Shown here: in pieces, positions 16,669 through 23,526 of the stretch
Position numbering within the stretch: position 1 is the stretch's first letter
Layout of the letters: each line of letters starts with the position of its first letter
Assembly (NCBI GenBank): GCA_964522265.1
Contig: CAZFVS010000004.1
Location: 1 to 28,701, forward strand
DNA length: 28,701 nucleotides
Direction: 5' to 3'
From: an uncultured Gammaproteobacteria bacterium
Lineage (GTDB): Bacteria > Patescibacteriota > Microgenomatia > Daviesbacterales > UBA10151
The notes under the pieces: model-generated
The model's database searches: none
The model's input: only the letters and a program-made list of their open reading frames with translations
What the model was told of the DNA's origin: nothing
Translations under genes and position numbers: made by a program

Positions 16669-17040
16669 TTGGGACTTATTATCTTTATATTGCTCAACTC
16701 GCTGGCTTTGATCATTACTGACTGGTTGCTACCGGGGTTTAATATTGCAGATTACCAAACAGCCATACTTGCTGCAATCGTAATAGGCCTAATCAATACA
16801 TTTATTAAACCATTCCTGCTTTTTATAACAGCCCCATTGAATTTTATGACACTGGGTCTTTTTGCTTTTGTAGTTAATGCAGTGGTATTATCCCTGACTT
16901 CCTGGATCCTGGGAAGTACATTCATCCTGGATAGTTTCTGGTGGGCAATTATGGCAGCAGCAGTACTGTCCGTTGTTTCAACTGCCTTGTCAACCCTGGC
17001 TAGAGATTTGGCAGTCACCGGGAAAAAACGGAAGCATTAG
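16669..17040 (+). CDS. 4-TM membrane protein of the holin superfamily IV / DUF360 type, 123 aa
   Basis: The pattern LLPGF...AAIVIGLINTFIKPFLLFITAPLNFMTLGLFAFVVNAVVL is typical of that family. It has a strong SD. The stop overlaps the convergent xer-like gene by 4 nt. Confidence 0.6.
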   Translation: MGLIIFILLNSLALIITDWLLPGFNIADYQTAILAAIVIGLINTFIKPFLLFITAPLNFMTLGLFAFVVNAVVLSLTSWILGSTFILDSFWWAIMAAAVLSVVSTALSTLARDLAVTGKKRKH

Positions 17041-17906
17041 ATACGATCCTTAAGTTGGGGGATTAACGAGATATTAGAATTACCCAGCATCTTCAAGATA
17101 CTTTTTACATCATTACCGTTATCTAAAAGGTTGGTTGTAAAGTTGTGACGGAGGGTATGGGGGGTAGCTTTGACTAACAAACCTGATAATTTAACATACT
17201 TTTCCACTATTCTCTCAATTGACCGGGGAGTAAGCCTCATCTTCTCTCCCTCATTTTCAGAATCAATGCTGCCTTGAAACCTGATAAATAGCGGGGCAAA
17301 GCTGTCTTGCCGTGACCTGATATACCGATCCAACCACCGTGCTGCCGAATCGGATATAAACACCATACGCTCCTTACCTCCCTTACCCCTCACCCCAAAT
17401 TCCTTTCTTTGCAGATTAATCTGTGAAATGTTTAAAGAAGCGAGCTCTGAGACTCTTAAACCTGTTGAAAACAACACTTCCAAAACAGTCCTGTCCCTTA
17501 ATCCATCTTTTCGTGTTACATTAGGCGCCATAAATAACCTTTCCAAATCACCTGCATCTAAAACTTTCAAGGGAGAAGGCTCTTGTATACCCAATTCTAT
17601 CTTTTCAGCAGAAAGTGTCTTGATATCATTTTCAGCCAGATATTTTACAAAGCTTCTTAAAGCAATTAAAAAGAAGTTTTGAGTTATTTTTTTAAGAGGT
17701 TCCTGGGTTTTTTGATCTGTGCAGCGGGCGAGATAAAATCTGTACCGCCTAATGAGCTCAGGATCAATCGCGGAGGGATTTATCTCCCCGGCAAAATCCT
17801 GAAACCGCCTAAGATAGTGGTCGTAATTTTTGATAGTTTTTGGGGATGCATTCCTTTCCAGCTCCAGATATTCCAGATAATTAGTAATCAGGGCAGAAAG
17901 AATCAT
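17037..17906 (-). CDS. XerC/XerD-like tyrosine recombinase homologue with a degenerate active site (no catalytic Tyr)
   Basis: The N-terminal SAM-like domain (YLEYLELERNASPKTIKNYDHYLRRF) is present, as are TGLRVSEL (Arg I), GKGGKERMV (Lys) and HTLRHNF (His/Arg II). The C-terminus reads MLGNSNISLIPQLKDRI*, where LGH...Y is expected. The ATG at 17906 lies 4 nt after the stop of the cohesin gene; the ORF track uses the TTG at 17909. Confidence 0.8.
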   Translation of the reverse strand: MILSALITNYLEYLELERNASPKTIKNYDHYLRRFQDFAGEINPSAIDPELIRRYRFYLARCTDQKTQEPLKKITQNFFLIALRSFVKYLAENDIKTLSAEKIELGIQEPSPLKVLDAGDLERLFMAPNVTRKDGLRDRTVLEVLFSTGLRVSELASLNISQINLQRKEFGVRGKGGKERMVFISDSAARWLDRYIRSRQDSFAPLFIRFQGSIDSENEGEKMRLTPRSIERIVEKYVKLSGLLVKATPHTLRHNFTTNLLDNGNDVKSILKMLGNSNISLIPQLKDRI

Positions 17907-17909
17907 CAA

Positions 17910-18668
17910 TTAAAGAAAAGCAAGTCCCAGAATTCCCAAGACAGTCAAAATACCTCCAATGATAGTTAGCATCATAGTTGGTCCTATAATACCAGGACAG
18001 GTCCCTCCAGGACATAGTGTTGGAGGAGGGGTTGCTGATTGGGAACTTGATGCCGGGACAAAGGTAGCAAGAGGCGGTGAGGTTGACCCAATTTGCCCTT
18101 GCCCGGACGGACCTGGGCTAGCACTTTGGCCGGCGCAGGTGCCTGTACCAATAGTATAACTGCCGTTTATTACAGAATTTAACACATCAGCTACCGTACC
18201 TCTCTCTACTACATTTGAATCCGTAGTTTTAGTTTTATTATTAGGATCAAATTCCAAAATGATTTGGGTTAAACCTGTTGGGGCGTTTTGAGGAACGGTA
18301 AAGTTCACTGTAGCCAGAGTACCACTGCTAGAAAACGCCTCCTGTACTGAAGCTAAACCAGAGATATTGATTTTTCTTGCCTGGGCATCAATAAAATTCC
18401 CAGGATAATCCGGGTAAATGGATCCGCTGATAATAGTTTGAGGGGTTACCCGAGTTGGGTCATAGTCCAAAATTGCGTCAGTCCCATCGGTTTGAGTACC
18501 CTGAGTATTAAGGTCAATTTTTATAGAAAAACTGCAGCCGCGGTTGAATGTTCCTGACGACGGATTCAAAGACAGGGTGGCTGCAAACGTCAAGCCTGGA
18601 TTAATTAATAAGGAACATGCCGCCATAAATACTAGTAGGCACGACAGCCAGTTTTTGACTCTATTCAT
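17910..18668 (-). CDS. Secreted cohesin-domain protein with a C-terminal transmembrane anchor, 252 aa
   Basis: Signal peptide (LLVFMAACSLLINPGLTFA/ATL). Cohesin-like beta-sandwich pattern (LSLNPSSGTF..GCSFSIKIDLNT.GTQTDGTDAILDYDPTRV ... GTLATVNFTV ... TTDSNVV). Ser/Pro/Gly linker. Terminal helix MMLTIIGGILTVLGILGLAFL. The start overlaps the upstream stop (ATGA). Confidence 0.75.
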   Translation of the reverse strand: MNRVKNWLSCLLVFMAACSLLINPGLTFAATLSLNPSSGTFNRGCSFSIKIDLNTQGTQTDGTDAILDYDPTRVTPQTIISGSIYPDYPGNFIDAQARKINISGLASVQEAFSSSGTLATVNFTVPQNAPTGLTQIILEFDPNNKTKTTDSNVVERGTVADVLNSVINGSYTIGTGTCAGQSASPGPSGQGQIGSTSPPLATFVPASSSQSATPPPTLCPGGTCPGIIGPTMMLTIIGGILTVLGILGLAFL

Positions 18669-19516
18669 TTTTTTATCTCACAGGTATCGCAAGCAGTCGT
18701 TAGATTCGGATCCCAAATGCACACATCATCCTTTTTCTTCCCTCCCTGGCATTCTTGGGTACCCTGACCTCCTGCCCCGTCCCAACAGATCTGTGAATAT
18801 CCTTCACAACGGTCTGAGGTGGCAGTTGTAACCTGACCTAAATCCCGGCTGCCGATTTGTAAATCAAGGTTGTAAACTTTGGTTAAAATATCATCTGTTG
18901 TTTTAGTCTCAATGATATTTGAGTCCGTAGTCAACCCCTTTTCGAAGTTAACAGCAATAGTTGCATTACCGCTTTTTTTGGTTTTAAAAGATAATACCCC
19001 AAAGGTACCAGTGCCATTAAAACCGTTTTTGTCAGGGTAGGCGATACCAGAAATTTCGATGATGCCAACTTTCGCATCATCGCTGACAATGGGGTATTCA
19101 TCGTATACCTCACCCTCGCTGAATGCAGAACTGCCTGCTGTCTCAAGTAAATTAGGGTCGTAATTTAGAACTACATCCATACCATCTGTAGTATGACCTC
19201 CAGTTGAGATTTTGATTGTAACTTTAACCGTGTCTCCTACGGGCAGATTTTTCTTGTCCGCAATTAAAACAATTTTACCCCCAGAAACCGGCTCCAATAC
19301 CTTAATTCTGGAAGATTGGAACGGAGTTTGCAAAATATTCATACCAACAAAAAGCCCAAACAGGATGACGGCCACTAAAATGACAATCCAAACTTTATAG
19401 TGCTTAAGAAATCTCGAAAAACTACTGTTTGGCAACTCTCCTCCGGGCGAAGAGATTTGAGCTGGTGAAAGCGACATATCGCTTTCGTATACTTCCGGTA
19501 ATTTCTCTTTACTCAT
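18665..19516 (-). CDS. N-terminally membrane-anchored cohesin-domain protein with a Cys-rich C-terminal module, 283 aa
   Basis: TM helix VWIVILVAVILFGLFVGMNIL. Cohesin-like pattern (VGDTVKVTIKISTGGHTTDGMDVVLNYDPNLL ... GTFGVLSFKTKKSG ... TTDSNII). Six Cys in the last 50 aa. There are 4-nt overlaps with both neighbouring genes. Confidence 0.75.
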   Translation of the reverse strand: MSKEKLPEVYESDMSLSPAQISSPGGELPNSSFSRFLKHYKVWIVILVAVILFGLFVGMNILQTPFQSSRIKVLEPVSGGKIVLIADKKNLPVGDTVKVTIKISTGGHTTDGMDVVLNYDPNLLETAGSSAFSEGEVYDEYPIVSDDAKVGIIEISGIAYPDKNGFNGTGTFGVLSFKTKKSGNATIAVNFEKGLTTDSNIIETKTTDDILTKVYNLDLQIGSRDLGQVTTATSDRCEGYSQICWDGAGGQGTQECQGGKKKDDVCIWDPNLTTACDTCEIKK

Positions 19517-21750
19517 AGTTCTGACTCATCCCTGCTATTAAAATCATACCTCATACAGGCCCAATCAAATGAATTCACTTTATTATCCCTGTTAAAATCT
19601 CCATTTCTTTGGGAGGATGACCTGCTTTCCCCCCATTCTCTATTTAACTCTGCTTTATCCGCTGAATTAATTACACCATCTCCGCCGTCTAAAGGAAAGA
19701 TATCACCAACAGGCAGTATCATATCAGGAATGATATTTACCCCTTCCTCAGCTGTAAAGGTAAATATCCGCCTTAAAGACATCGGCGCTTTCACAGAGAT
19801 GGTATAAGTTTTACCTGTTTCAAATTTTGTTTTAAGCCCTTGGACCTTCCCTTTTTTATCAACACTGACTATCTCTTTTTTGGGTTTAGATGTAGCGCTG
19901 CCCGATGCTTCGACCGAAGAAGGATCAGGTTCTTGGACAATAACAATTTCAACATCTTCTTGGGCATGATCACTGGGCTTGCGGCAAAACAATTTGGTCC
20001 CAAATTCAAGCTGCTCAAGCTGCCCGAGGGTACAGACTGTCTTGACCTCAACCCCATCAATCCTTTTTATTGCCAGAGGAAACTCTGCAGCCTCGTCTAA
20101 CTGCCCGAGGGAAAACTTTAACAGGGCATTGATGTTATTGTTATCCCATCTGTTAATTCTTACATCACCTGCACCAGAAGAATCATCGATTAAAAACTGG
20201 CCTTGCTCACTTCCAAAATTATTACCGGTCAGTTTGAATCTGATGCCATCCTCACCTAAACTCGTGGAACAGCTTTTGGAGGTAATTTGCGGATCCGGAC
20301 CAACAAATTTTATGGAAGCGTTCTTCCTTACAATAGTCCCTTTTGAACCGATAAATTCTATAAAAATAAACTTTTCAGGTTTTTTGTCGTCTGAAAATTT
20401 AAAGTTTACAACCACCGGCTCGATGGTGTATGGGATCTGCGGAGCATCTGCCAACCCATCAGGCGTTTCGGCGAATTTATAGAATGAAGTTTTCTCACCT
20501 TCAGAAGTAGACGGAGCAGTAGGTGTAGGTGAGGTAACCCCACCACTAGATGAGGGCGTTGGTTTAGGTGTCTTAGTAGGCTTGGGAGTTTTGGTTGGTT
20601 TAGGTGTCTTAGTAGGCTTGGGGGTAGGAGTACCGCTACCCCGGCAATAGTTGATATCCCTCTCATGTTCTGCAACCCATGCTTCGGCGGCTTTTTTAGG
20701 GTCATTATCGTTTCTCGCCAAAAAATCCTTTTGACTCTGTTCGCCCTCCGTACCAAACAGGCTCAACCCATCACAGGCTTTAATGATCGGAGCATCACTC
20801 AAATAGCCGCATACCCCATTGATCTGTCCTTTGTTGCGACATTCATAAAGGTCAGAACAAGCAGCAGACTTTGGTTGTACCTCTATTACATAACCTTCTT
20901 GCGCAAACTCTCCACCTTTTTTGTAACAAAAAGTATCAGGGTTGCCGCTGCATTCTGTATACGCATCACCTACATTTTCGCAAGTGTCTGTGTCTGCTTT
21001 TGCTATAGGAACAAACTCCTGTAACCAACCCGCTTCTTTTAGTTTTGGCGGCTCTTGGTCTGAAATGGTAATTTTGTCAATCATGAGCTCCCTGGTGCAT
21101 TTTGATGTCTGTTTTTCATTACTGTACTCTACGGTCACTGTATGCTTCTGGTCTGATAGTTTAGGATTGTCAAAATACTCCTGCCAGACAGTTGTTTTGA
21201 TAGGTTCGCTCAACACCCTTTTGCCATTCTCTATGCTGACCTTTACAGTAGGCCAGCCGCTGCAATCTTTAGCTTGGGCTCTCACTACAACATATTTCCC
21301 GGTGCCTGTAATCTCACCGGTGGCGGTACCTTTTTTGGTAAACCTCCTGGCCTTGCCACCGCTGGCATTGGTGTCATCAAAAACATCCCCATCACCTGTC
21401 ATAGCCTCTGCTTCCAAAACCTTGCTCACTCCTGGTGTTGGGGTAGGGGTAGCTGTGGGCGTAACTGTAGGGGTAGCTGTAGGAGTTGGTTCAGGTGTTC
21501 CAGGAGGCCCAATAGGGGAGACTGCCTCAACAGTAATGGGGTCAAGACAGGTAGCTACCAGCTTATTATCGCGGGCAACAACGCACTTTCCTTCAATAAA
21601 TTTTACATAACTTTGCTGGGCCCTGGAAGAAATAATCTGCTGCTGCCTGACAAGTGCAATCCCAACAGGCAGACCCAAGGCTATAATAATCAGCAATAAA
21701 ATATTAACAAGGTTTTTCCTTGTTTTCAGAAGGGTTATTAGATCATTCAC
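19513..21750 (-). CDS. Large secreted multidomain protein with a C-terminal dockerin, 745 aa
   Basis: Domains in order:
- aa 14-34: signal anchor.
- TP-rich linker.
- aa ~108-230: CBM6/35-like module (LEAEAM..D..NASGGKA...GKYVVVRA).
- aa ~255-370: Cys-rich module.
- aa 373-397: (PKPTKT)n linker.
- aa ~485-575: IPT/TIG-like module (FKLTGNNFGSEQG...).
- A beta-sandwich module.
- aa 682-745: dockerin with EF-hand-like loops DGGDGVINSAD and DFNRDNKVNSFD.
The start codon is GTG. Confidence 0.75.
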   Translation of the reverse strand: MNDLITLLKTRKNLVNILLLIIIALGLPVGIALVRQQQIISSRAQQSYVKFIEGKCVVARDNKLVATCLDPITVEAVSPIGPPGTPEPTPTATPTVTPTATPTPTPGVSKVLEAEAMTGDGDVFDDTNASGGKARRFTKKGTATGEITGTGKYVVVRAQAKDCSGWPTVKVSIENGKRVLSEPIKTTVWQEYFDNPKLSDQKHTVTVEYSNEKQTSKCTRELMIDKITISDQEPPKLKEAGWLQEFVPIAKADTDTCENVGDAYTECSGNPDTFCYKKGGEFAQEGYVIEVQPKSAACSDLYECRNKGQINGVCGYLSDAPIIKACDGLSLFGTEGEQSQKDFLARNDNDPKKAAEAWVAEHERDINYCRGSGTPTPKPTKTPKPTKTPKPTKTPKPTPSSSGGVTSPTPTAPSTSEGEKTSFYKFAETPDGLADAPQIPYTIEPVVVNFKFSDDKKPEKFIFIEFIGSKGTIVRKNASIKFVGPDPQITSKSCSTSLGEDGIRFKLTGNNFGSEQGQFLIDDSSGAGDVRINRWDNNNINALLKFSLGQLDEAAEFPLAIKRIDGVEVKTVCTLGQLEQLEFGTKLFCRKPSDHAQEDVEIVIVQEPDPSSVEASGSATSKPKKEIVSVDKKGKVQGLKTKFETGKTYTISVKAPMSLRRIFTFTAEEGVNIIPDMILPVGDIFPLDGGDGVINSADKAELNREWGESRSSSQRNGDFNRDNKVNSFDWACMRYDFNSRDESEL
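20571..20632. repeat. In-frame tandem repeat with a 36-nt period, encoding PKPTKTPKPTKT units
   Basis: The 26-mer ggtttaggtgtcttagtaggcttggg occurs at 20571-20596 and again at 20607-20632. Confidence 0.85.
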
Positions 21751-21787: not shown

Positions 21788-21875
21788 CCCCGATCCAACT
21801 GCGCTGAGGCCAAGTACTCATTCAAATATTGTACGACAATGATTTATTGGTAAAATCCGGATTTTTTTTAATATA

Positions 21876-22880
21876 TTACTTGTTACCGGGTACAGGTAGG
21901 GGATGGAAGCGTTTATGGGACTCCTGGGCAAATTTGTCGGAAGCATTGACATAACGGGTGGTAGTATTTAATGATTCGTGGCCCAGAAGCATTTGTATGG
22001 CAACCGGACTGGCTCCTTTCTCTGCCAAATAAGTAGCAAAACCATGGCGTAGGGAGTGAGGACTAATTGGAATATCAATTTTAAGCATTTCACGGTATTT
22101 TTTAATTTTTTCCTGTATATATCTGGTGGAAATTCTTCTTTGGGATTTATTAATAGTTTTTCCTTTAGTCGGAACAAATAATGCTTGCTGAGTATCATCT
22201 CTAAAACCAAGGTATTGGTTTAGAAATGCTTTTGCTCTTTCAGTAATATATGCAAACCGTTGTTTGCGTCCTTTTCCGGTTATTAAAATCCGTCCAGAAC
22301 GATTTAAATCGTGTATATTTAGGGATACAAGTTCAGATATACGCATTCCTGTTGCAAATAATACTTCAAGAATAGCCCTATTCCGTGATGCAATTTCTGG
22401 ATCGGATTCCAATACAGAAGGAGATTCTATCAAGGAGATTAGTTCGCTCAGTTCAGCAACATTTGGGTGCAACCGGTCTCTTTTAACCATCCTGAATTGG
22501 TCGGGTATTATTTCTAACCTAAAATCCTGATCAATTAAAAAGCGTAAATATGTCCTTACCGCCGATAAACATCTATTAATACTGGCGGGGGATAGATGTG
22601 ATTCGATTTTGAGCTTATTTGTAGCAGTTTTCCGGTCATCTGAAGCTAAATATGCCTTAAATTCGAAAACATTTCTTTTATCCATCTGGTTTAAAGTTAT
22701 CTCTTTTATTTTTAGGAAATCCTCGAATATAACCAGATCTTTTTGATAATTGTAAACAGTTTTGGGTGAGTAGTTATTAGTCTTAAGATATAAAAAAAAA
22801 TCTTCCACTTGAACCAGCAAGCTATGATTTATTATTCGCATAAGGATGATTATACGCATAATAACTAATCTTGAGTTCAA
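21876..22880 (-). CDS. Tyrosine recombinase of the XerC/XerD/integrase family with a complete active site
   Basis: Motifs present: ATGMRISEL, GKGRKQRFA, HSLRHGFATYL and LLGHESLNTTTRYV (catalytic Tyr). The start is uncertain. The longest ORF uses the TTG at 22880. The ATG at 22841 is preceded by TATAAT (22854-22849) 7 nt upstream. Confidence 0.85.
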   Translation of the reverse strand: MNSRLVIMRIIILMRIINHSLLVQVEDFFLYLKTNNYSPKTVYNYQKDLVIFEDFLKIKEITLNQMDKRNVFEFKAYLASDDRKTATNKLKIESHLSPASINRCLSAVRTYLRFLIDQDFRLEIIPDQFRMVKRDRLHPNVAELSELISLIESPSVLESDPEIASRNRAILEVLFATGMRISELVSLNIHDLNRSGRILITGKGRKQRFAYITERAKAFLNQYLGFRDDTQQALFVPTKGKTINKSQRRISTRYIQEKIKKYREMLKIDIPISPHSLRHGFATYLAEKGASPVAIQMLLGHESLNTTTRYVNASDKFAQESHKRFHPLPVPGNK

Positions 22881-22918
22881 TTGTCAAGTTTAAGGTTACT
22901 TCTCGACTCGTCTCGGCG

Positions 22919-22942
22919 AGGCGGGCGTGGCTTCGCCCGCCT
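22919..22942. other. Strong GC hairpin AGGCGGGCG-tggctt-CGCCCGCCT inside the 646-bp non-coding gap
   Basis: A 9-bp, all-Watson-Crick, GC-rich stem. No flanking T-run on either strand, so it is not a classical terminator. Confidence 0.6.
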
Positions 22943-23526
22943 TTGTGGCGTAGCCTTTTCCGGTCGTCTCGCAATTTAGCCTTGAGCCCTAAAATGACCC
23001 TTAAAACGGTTTATCGGCAGGGGAGATGTAGGATTGATCATTCTGAGTTTAGGCTGTTACAACGCGCTAAATAAAATTTAAGCTTTATCATCAAAGTACT
23101 AAAAAATTTTAAAAAAATTGCAGGATAAATTGGCAGAAATAGGTTCAATAAATCAGACTGAAAAATCTGCATTTTTGGTCCATGCTATCCCTTCATTATC
23201 TAAATGGGTGTCCCCTGAGAAATTAGGTTTATAACGTCGGACAATATCATGGTACGATATGCGCTTGGGTAGAAGTATACCCGAACAGAAAGGGTGGTGG
23301 AGAAAACAGACGATCAACTTAAATTTCGTTATATTCCGTGCTCCTTTATCACCTTCTTTTGAAATATCTTAAACTTATTCCCTACTGCATCGCTAAGTCC
23401 ATTTTTTTCACGCGTGTAAATTAATCTTTATAACACCCCTATCATATTTTTATCTTTTTGGGAATAGCTTATAGTTATCCACAATTCTCTAAGTTTGACT
23501 ATATCATTCTGTATCAATAATCTTTA

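Follow-up and report, generated by a model that had tools for sequence, protein, structure and literature searches.

The 28,701-nucleotide (nt) stretch of DNA analysed here (the window; contig CAZFVS010000004.1 of assembly GCA_964522265.1, from an uncultured member of the Daviesbacteria family) carries a gene, hereafter recombinase A, that encodes an Xer-type tyrosine recombinase without the third catalytic histidine (His-III) and without the nucleophilic tyrosine (17037–17909, reverse strand; all genes and codons of the window described below lie on this strand unless stated otherwise). Judging from its sequence divergence, the remainder of the gene (281 codons) has been held open under purifying selection after the loss. 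The explanation that we moderately favour is that A is a selection-maintained, non-catalytic DNA-binding remnant, the chemistry of which has been taken over by recombinase B, an intact paralogue that heads the same dockerin–cohesin block, 4 kb further upstream. The dead A may persist as a protein that no longer catalyses recombination but binds and bends DNA in a sequence-specific manner and that probably still occupies the ancestral site of A, and the strand cleavage once performed by A would now be supplied by B, possibly with a contribution of C, the third recombinase of the genome.

Loss of the nucleophile in recombinase A

The open reading frame (ORF) of A comprises 290 codons from a TTG at 17909 to the stop at 17037–17039, and the probable start is the ATG at 17906 (codon 2). 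It scores 112.1 bits against PF00589 (cut-off 27.1) and 48 bits against the N-terminal SAM-like domain PF02899, and this combination of a catalytic-domain profile and a SAM-like core-binding domain places it in the tyrosine recombinase/phage integrase superfamily, with XerC, XerD, and XerA as its best NCBIfam matches. The initial annotation had listed Arg-I, the Lys, and the HxxR box as retained, and TGLRVSEL, GKGGKERMV, and HTLRHNF are indeed all present in the translation. Arg-I corresponds to R152 in TGLRVSEL (17454–17456), the β-hairpin Lys to K176 in GKGGKER (17382–17384), and His-II (H251) and Arg-II (R254) are both kept in HTLR (17148–17159).

Downstream of these residues, the protein departs from its family. 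Codon 277 (17079–17081) encodes Asn instead of the conserved His-III, changing LGH to LGN, and the protein ends in MLGNSNISLIPQLKDRI, with a new tail of nine residues (LIPQLKDRI, 17040–17066) in place of the Tyr helix and the C-terminal helix, whereas LGH....TT..Y is found in 116 of the 120 closest orthologues. The DNA alignment with the intact orthologue of the same-genus genome G001 revealed that ~69–77 nt are absent from A. The missing stretch runs from ..AATATCTCAACA to the stop of the convergent gene, and the lost segment encodes TQIYTHxTNxQLKxVHxxFH. Of the two substitutions proposed initially, the Asn at the second His is therefore correct, but the Tyr has not been replaced by Leu, since the segment that carried it is deleted. 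The new tail contains no Tyr. With the Tyr helix deleted and His-III changed to Asn, A has no recognisable nucleophile, and the R-K-H-R-(H/W)-Y set of an active enzyme is incomplete. The alignment to XerC and XerD that had been proposed as a check agrees, with R, K, H, and R aligned, Asn at the position of His-III, and the alignment ending before the Tyr. All alignments of A, whether to the XerC/XerD profiles, to the intact neighbour P0002, or to Escherichia coli XerD (1a0p), end at residue 281–282 (..LGNSNIS).

A simple frameshift had been considered unable to restore the motif, and this holds. The other two frames at the 3′ end of A run into immediate stops, no TTxxY relic was found in them, and the C5 run at the junction is not conserved in the closest related contig (L034, see below), so that rescue by a frameshift was rejected. 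A search of the whole 94%-complete assembly revealed no separate A-type tail, which would have pointed to a split gene. It is very hard to believe that A is still catalytic, either through the nucleophile of a partner acting in trans, as in the shared active site of Flp, or through another residue. Although Arg-I, Lys, His-II, and Arg-II are all kept in this genome, His-III is lost, the new tail has no Tyr, the closest relative has changed the HTLRH box to HTLRY, and other dead lineages have lost Arg-I, Lys, or His-II. Moreover, Xer, Cre, and lambda-Int cleave in cis.

A shared lesion in a second species

The closest database relative of A is P0004, which shares an amino acid identity of 77% and is encoded on L034, a 3.6-kb contig from another sequencing run. 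The gene order of L034 is the same as that of the window, namely two cohesin genes and A, followed by a convergent holin-like gene, orf67, and gyrA. P0004 has the same LGN, the same ~69-nt 3′ deletion, and the same junction (..ATCTCnnnAATCCC..), as anticipated by the suggestion that orthologues with the same substitutions be sought. In addition, at seven columns with a conservation of at least 97% among 117 live orthologues, A and P0004 deviate in common. The shared LGN, junction, and departures indicate that the lesion is older than the split of A and P0004. On the evidence of these two contigs, the lesion in A is real and arose before this genome and a second species diverged from their common ancestor. 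An assembly or binning artefact that conceals a true gene with a normal 3′ end would fit the fragmented state of the metagenome assembly (147 contigs). However, it is scarcely credible given that the deletion junction recurs on an independent contig of another run at this divergence, together with the His-to-Asn change and the flanking genes, and that the 3′ end of A abuts the conserved convergent gene in both contigs.

No further members of the LGN clade were found in junction-pattern scans of metagenome and genome contigs, and P0004 was the sole LGN-clade relative found in a search of 5.8 billion proteins with the C-terminal region. A search for the B of the second organism returned closest homologues (73–74%) that belong to unrelated genomes.

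Purifying selection on the remaining protein

The dead pair formed by A and its counterpart on L034 gave a ratio of nonsynonymous to synonymous divergence (dN/dS) of 0.173 by NG86, with a bootstrap confidence interval (CI) of 0.11–0.26 at a dS of 0.74. Estimates over 253–280 codons ranged from 0.17 to 0.22 at a dS of 0.60–0.74, and neither stops nor indels occurred in 280 codons. The neighbouring cohesin genes have a dN/dS of 0.10–0.24, gyrA 0.03–0.045, and the only unsaturated live–live pair of A genes 0.076 (CI 0.045–0.12). Two other independent dead clades of A (G099/G102/G103 and G016/G110/G111) gave 0.13–0.25. With a dN/dS far from 1 and without internal stops or frameshifts, A does not behave as a pseudogene.

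The constraint is unevenly distributed along the protein. Of the strongly conserved columns, 88–100% are kept in residues 1–245, compared with 67% in residues 246–281. The N-terminal core-binding domain and the catalytic domain over its first two thirds have thus stayed conserved, and the relaxation is found beside the lost parts of the active site. The older dead lineages of A keep residues 1–160 and 187–245 and have lost the Lys hairpin and everything after HxxR. The AlphaFold2 (AF2) model of A has a predicted local distance difference test score (pLDDT) of 85.8, with the fold intact to helix 268–275 and disordered after it, and its top Foldseek matches are XerA, XerD, and IntI at a probability of 1.00.

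Part of the protein is nevertheless decaying. The dN/dS of the dead A is about twice that of live copies, and the dead pair has 14–15 departures at near-invariant columns, concentrated at residues 255–277, whereas live copies average 0.58 such departures, with a maximum of 4. Both values would suit a relic on its way out, that is, a gene that became redundant after the arrival of B, lost catalysis, and has since slowly decayed without a function of its own and without a stop so far. The in-frame stops that some relatives (G004, G097, and G109) have in the aligned stretch would suit it too. Such a course seems unlikely, because the CI of dN/dS lies far below 1 with not a single stop or indel at a dS of 0.74, because three independent dead clades agree on the value, and because the lesions are gathered at the C-terminus instead of being spread over the gene.

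Degeneration of A accompanies a second recombinase

The survey covered 96 species of the Daviesbacteria family, the A genes of which were compared with the full-length query. A-type genes are present in 90 of the 96 genomes and also in most other families of the class, at 46–58% identity. Of the 90 family genes, 22 are C-terminally truncated or have lost catalytic residues, and all 22 belong to genomes with B or with A2, a third type of recombinase (19 with B, three with A2 at the operon head). By comparison, B accompanies a full-length A in 16 of 68 genomes. Fisher's test of degenerate A against the presence of B or A2 gave 4e-11 with kinship ignored, a value that overstates the association, since related genomes do not count as independent cases. 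In the sequence-checked subset, RKHRHY and a full tail were found in all 18 genomes without B, while 10 intact and 22 degenerate copies of A were found in genomes with B. B itself is intact in the window and in all 10 full-length copies checked. Within the genus of this genome, G001 combines a live A with a clean absence of B, and the present genome combines a dead A with B.

At least 10 different types of lesion occur among the degenerate genes, and the C-terminal ones cluster in the last fifth of the gene. They include loss of the Tyr helix (this genome and L034), a cut after TTQ (G008 and P0037), a cut after HTLRH (G024), in-frame internal deletions (G096 and P0143), loss of the last helix alone (G042, G095, G105, and G109), a Gln in place of His-II, in part combined with loss of Arg-I (G099, G102, and G103), a change of Arg-I to Leu (G023 and G070), and an older multi-genus group in which the Lys hairpin is also lost (G004, G007, G016, G046, G055, G110, and G111). 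The A gene tree required 12 parsimony changes, with two pairs on supported branches. A was lost altogether in none of the genomes that have B and an assembled locus, which speaks against the functionless relic considered above, although it is in line with that relic that other families keep A alone or B alone. A and the cohesin gene are absent together in five genomes, a count affected by two contigs that break off directly behind gyrA.

In three other families, the slot between DUF5656 and gyrA holds a B orthologue (54–58% identity) and no A. Taken together with the degeneration of A in genomes with B, this suggests that A and B are interchangeable occupants of the slot and that one of them is lost where both coexist. 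We infer from these sequences that coexistence ends either with the deletion of B or with the crippling of A.

Several side observations were made on the occupants of the slot. Across the class, it contains an A-type or a B-type recombinase (L085 of G027, L086 of G036, L087 of G040; L025–L032). A2, which is intact and ~45% identical to A, is located at the position of B in L043 (G008), L074 (G110), and L077 (G099), and in G110 a B remnant (residues 218–314) directly follows A2; A2 at this position together with the B remnant suggests repeated replacement at the slot. In G008, the stop of A overlaps (ATGA; L019, 1002–1005) the start of a co-directional P-type ATPase gene, and a rearrangement has replaced the 3′ end of the recombinase and the usual holin-like and gyrA neighbours. 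In G024 (L024, 113–1434), the usual neighbours are replaced behind the truncated A by a pair resembling a lysis module, which consists of an N-acetylmuramoyl-L-alanine-amidase-like gene and the gene of a small membrane protein.

Possible role of the dead protein

The initial annotation had offered a dead DNA-binding protein, acting as a regulator or as an accessory to the intact recombinase, as one reading of A. This reading is favoured by the dN/dS of 0.17, the intact fold, and the restriction of degeneration to genomes with a second recombinase, from which we infer DNA binding and the partnership with B. The word paralogue, as used there for the dead copy, fits less well, since the ancestral and near-universal copy is the dead A and the optional extra is the intact B.

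Besides the partial decay of the protein, several observations weigh against a maintained DNA-binding remnant served by B. The lesion of the LGN clade is known from two genomes only, and the surroundings of the operon yielded neither a candidate binding site nor an inverted repeat. The A gene tree has four well-supported branches of 47 and no power for a kinship-corrected test of the association between A and B. In other families, the redundant copy has simply been deleted, and long-term retention of a dead A is thus not a general rule. Finally, the C-terminal helix forms the inter-protomer contact in canonical tetramers such as those of Cre and XerD, and its loss argues against a classical heterotetramer role.

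In a rather unlikely variant, the dead A would form a mixed Xer complex together with B or C, as its obligate but non-catalytic component, and would represent a naturally half-dead recombinase. If this were true, the live partner would exchange only one pair of strands and the Holliday junction would be finished by RuvC or by replication, and the Daviesbacteria would have evolved such a division of labour repeatedly, each time that a second paralogue was at hand.

Recombinase A as an old core gene

The genome (G000; 1.18 Mb, 147 contigs, 94% complete) encodes three tyrosine recombinases, namely A, the intact B (21876–22880 of the window), and an intact C on contig C121. C is single-copy and full-length in 91 of the 96 family genomes, and B is optional across the family and absent from its slot in G001. 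The family gene order is RuvC, DUF5656, B where present, dockerin, cohesin, cohesin, and A, followed by the convergent holin-like gene, orf67, and gyrA. Elsewhere in the class, other families have A between DUF5656 and gyrA without dockerin or cohesin genes. The occurrence of A in this slot without the surface genes indicates that A is an old core gene and that the surface operon is a family-specific insertion. The dockerin–cohesin operon was observed inserted in the DUF5656–gyrA slot in the Daviesbacteria family only.

A decaying integrase that marks the edge of an island had been the other reading offered initially. It is ruled out by the position of A as a class-wide core Xer gene in conserved synteny (RuvC–DUF5656 ... 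A, convergent with gyrA) within the family and the class, which is not that of a mobile-island edge, and the gene has stayed open through a dS of ~0.74. Neither a tRNA nor convincing flanking repeats were found at the A locus. An invertible or excisable cassette between A and B was also considered and rejected, as only chance-level repeats were found and the sole conserved motif, TGTCGTACAATAT, is promoter-like; neither a recombination site nor an operator was identified.

FtsK is present in this genome. A scan for dif with the canonical core, which is a proteobacterial/Firmicute pattern, returned only an IS200/IS605-like repeat, and no dif site was identified. An identical 3′ end of an IS200/IS605-like transposase gene with a terminal hairpin, CCCGCGGACTTTAGTCCGCGG, is present on at least three contigs of the genome (C52:2627–2646, C62:3859–3878, and C93:4288–4307). 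This repeated element probably adds to the fragmentation of the assembly.

The surface operon and its relation to A

The operon reads from the first surface gene, a dockerin/CBM60 surface protein of 745 amino acids (19513–21750, Pfam and synteny), through a cohesin-domain gene of 283 amino acids (18665–19516, Pfam and synteny) and another of 252 amino acids (17910–18668, PF00963), the stop of which lies 3 nt before the ATG of A. The initial description of this locus was accurate in that A starts with taaTTGATG right after the stop of the cohesin gene and its 3′ end overlaps by 4 nt the convergent gene of a holin-like membrane protein with four transmembrane segments (16669–17040, forward strand, PF04020). 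In G001, the stops of A and of the convergent gene are 11 nt apart. The coupling of A to the cohesin operon, also noted initially, is real, but it is common to intact orthologues. The adjacency is kept in nearly all family members, intact A included, with spacers of 1–3 nt. The coupling is secondary, given that the operon was inserted upstream of A in this family only.

This arrangement raises another alternative, in which A has a stand-alone, non-recombination role independent of B and C, either as a repressor or architectural factor of the dockerin–cohesin operon or as an SMC unloader. An operon-related role would suit the fact that nearly all family members have A translationally coupled to the cohesin genes, but the operon was inserted upstream of the older A, which thus did not arise as an operon regulator. 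Independence from a partner would suit the old dead lineages, which have nothing after HxxR and in which docking of a partner is hardly possible, but a stand-alone role does not by itself account for the loss of catalysis only together with B or A2. The SMC-unloading role of XerD is not known to need catalysis. Passages of PMC12322038 and PMC11898615, citing Karaboja 2021, describe the unloading of SMC at the terminus by Bacillus subtilis XerD. The SMC hinge, ScpA, and ScpB profiles, however, found nothing in the 94%-complete genome, which disfavours the analogy; if the absence is true, the organism lacks the Smc–ScpAB condensin. On balance, a stand-alone role appears improbable compared with a non-catalytic remnant maintained beside B.

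B occupies 21876–22841 in an ORF that is open to 22880. It has R, K, HxxR, LGH..Y, and the full tail, and it carries LLGHESLNTTTRYV, in agreement with its initial description as an intact recombinase. The probable start of B is the ATG at 22841, downstream of a promoter-like TTGACA-18-TATTAT at 22887–22858.

Two further features of the block were recorded. The motif TGTCGTACAATAT (21818–21840 of the window, reverse strand; L049, 10854; L048, 12194; L079, 8386) lies upstream of the gene heading a unit, which is the dockerin gene in this genome and in G001, A in G019, and B in G097, and it is most simply explained as a conserved promoter −10 region. Upstream of B, there is a non-coding gap of 646 nt (22881–23526; core 22972–23152) that contains a GC-rich hairpin at ~22919–22942, and a stretch of 185 nt within it is 71% identical to the DUF5656–dockerin gap of G001, which lacks B. 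The gap had no Rfam match at E ≤ 1 and no tRNA, and it could represent an undescribed small RNA or a terminator or regulatory element.

Significance and comparison with known systems

Catalytically dead relatives of enzymes are often written off as pseudogenes. Here, a single uncultured family has disabled the same core recombinase in at least 10 independent ways, only in the company of a back-up paralogue, and the disabled protein is kept by measurable selection. A single A gene would be a modest curiosity; the more interesting result is the family-wide, paralogue-dependent, and selection-maintained loss of catalysis. The dead A offers a testable case of an Xer function besides DNA cutting, and the same question applies to the streptococcal XerD-like protein. 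For annotation, caution is advisable, as the genes called tyrosine recombinase or integrase in Patescibacteria include many non-catalytic copies. Likewise, the recombinases flanking the dockerin–cohesin operon are redundant occupants of one ancestral slot and should not be taken as evidence for a cassette that is mobile or invertible.

The literature that was searched contained nothing on Xer proteins or on cohesin–dockerin operons with recombinases in Patescibacteria. A and C resemble XerC/XerD (TIGR02224/TIGR02225) in being two near-universal single-copy paralogues per genome, with FtsK present, and A shares the two-domain fold with XerC/XerD and archaeal XerA, which are its best profile and structural matches (structures 5hxy, 4a8e, and 1a0p). 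However, A scores 178.6 and 177.3 bits, below the equivalog cut-offs of 335 and 330, and the intact orthologue P0005 also falls below them (243 and 234 bits). Unlike XerC, XerD, and XerA, this copy of A has neither Tyr nor His-III.

The streptococcal and lactococcal XerD-like protein YnbA is conserved, but its extreme C-terminal end and two residues of the R-H-R-Y set are missing; it is inactive at difSL and sits beside the recombinase XerS, which has taken over dimer resolution in that lineage (PMC1914069). A resembles YnbA (NF002685) as a conserved Xer-type protein coexisting with a recombinase that would do the chemistry. The likeness is functional and evolutionary only, as A (P0001) has no NF002685 match at E ≤ 0.01 (cut-off 178 bits). 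A differs from YnbA in that the loss is recent, has recurred in the form of at least 10 lesion types within one family, and is coupled to an optional paralogue from the same block of genes, and in that this copy has kept the catalytic Arg, Lys, His, and Arg. In TnsF of Tn6022-like Tn7 transposons, an inactivated tyrosine-recombinase domain has been reused for DNA targeting, and the active ancestor is extant (PMC10293859). Like TnsF, A is derived from a tyrosine recombinase and has lost its catalytic pocket; TnsF differs in its zinc fingers, duplicated core-binding domain, and transposon setting, whereas A is a chromosomal core gene of ordinary Xer architecture. A, which by sequence belongs to neither family, is an independent variant of the theme represented by YnbA and TnsF, one that has recurred many times within a single family.

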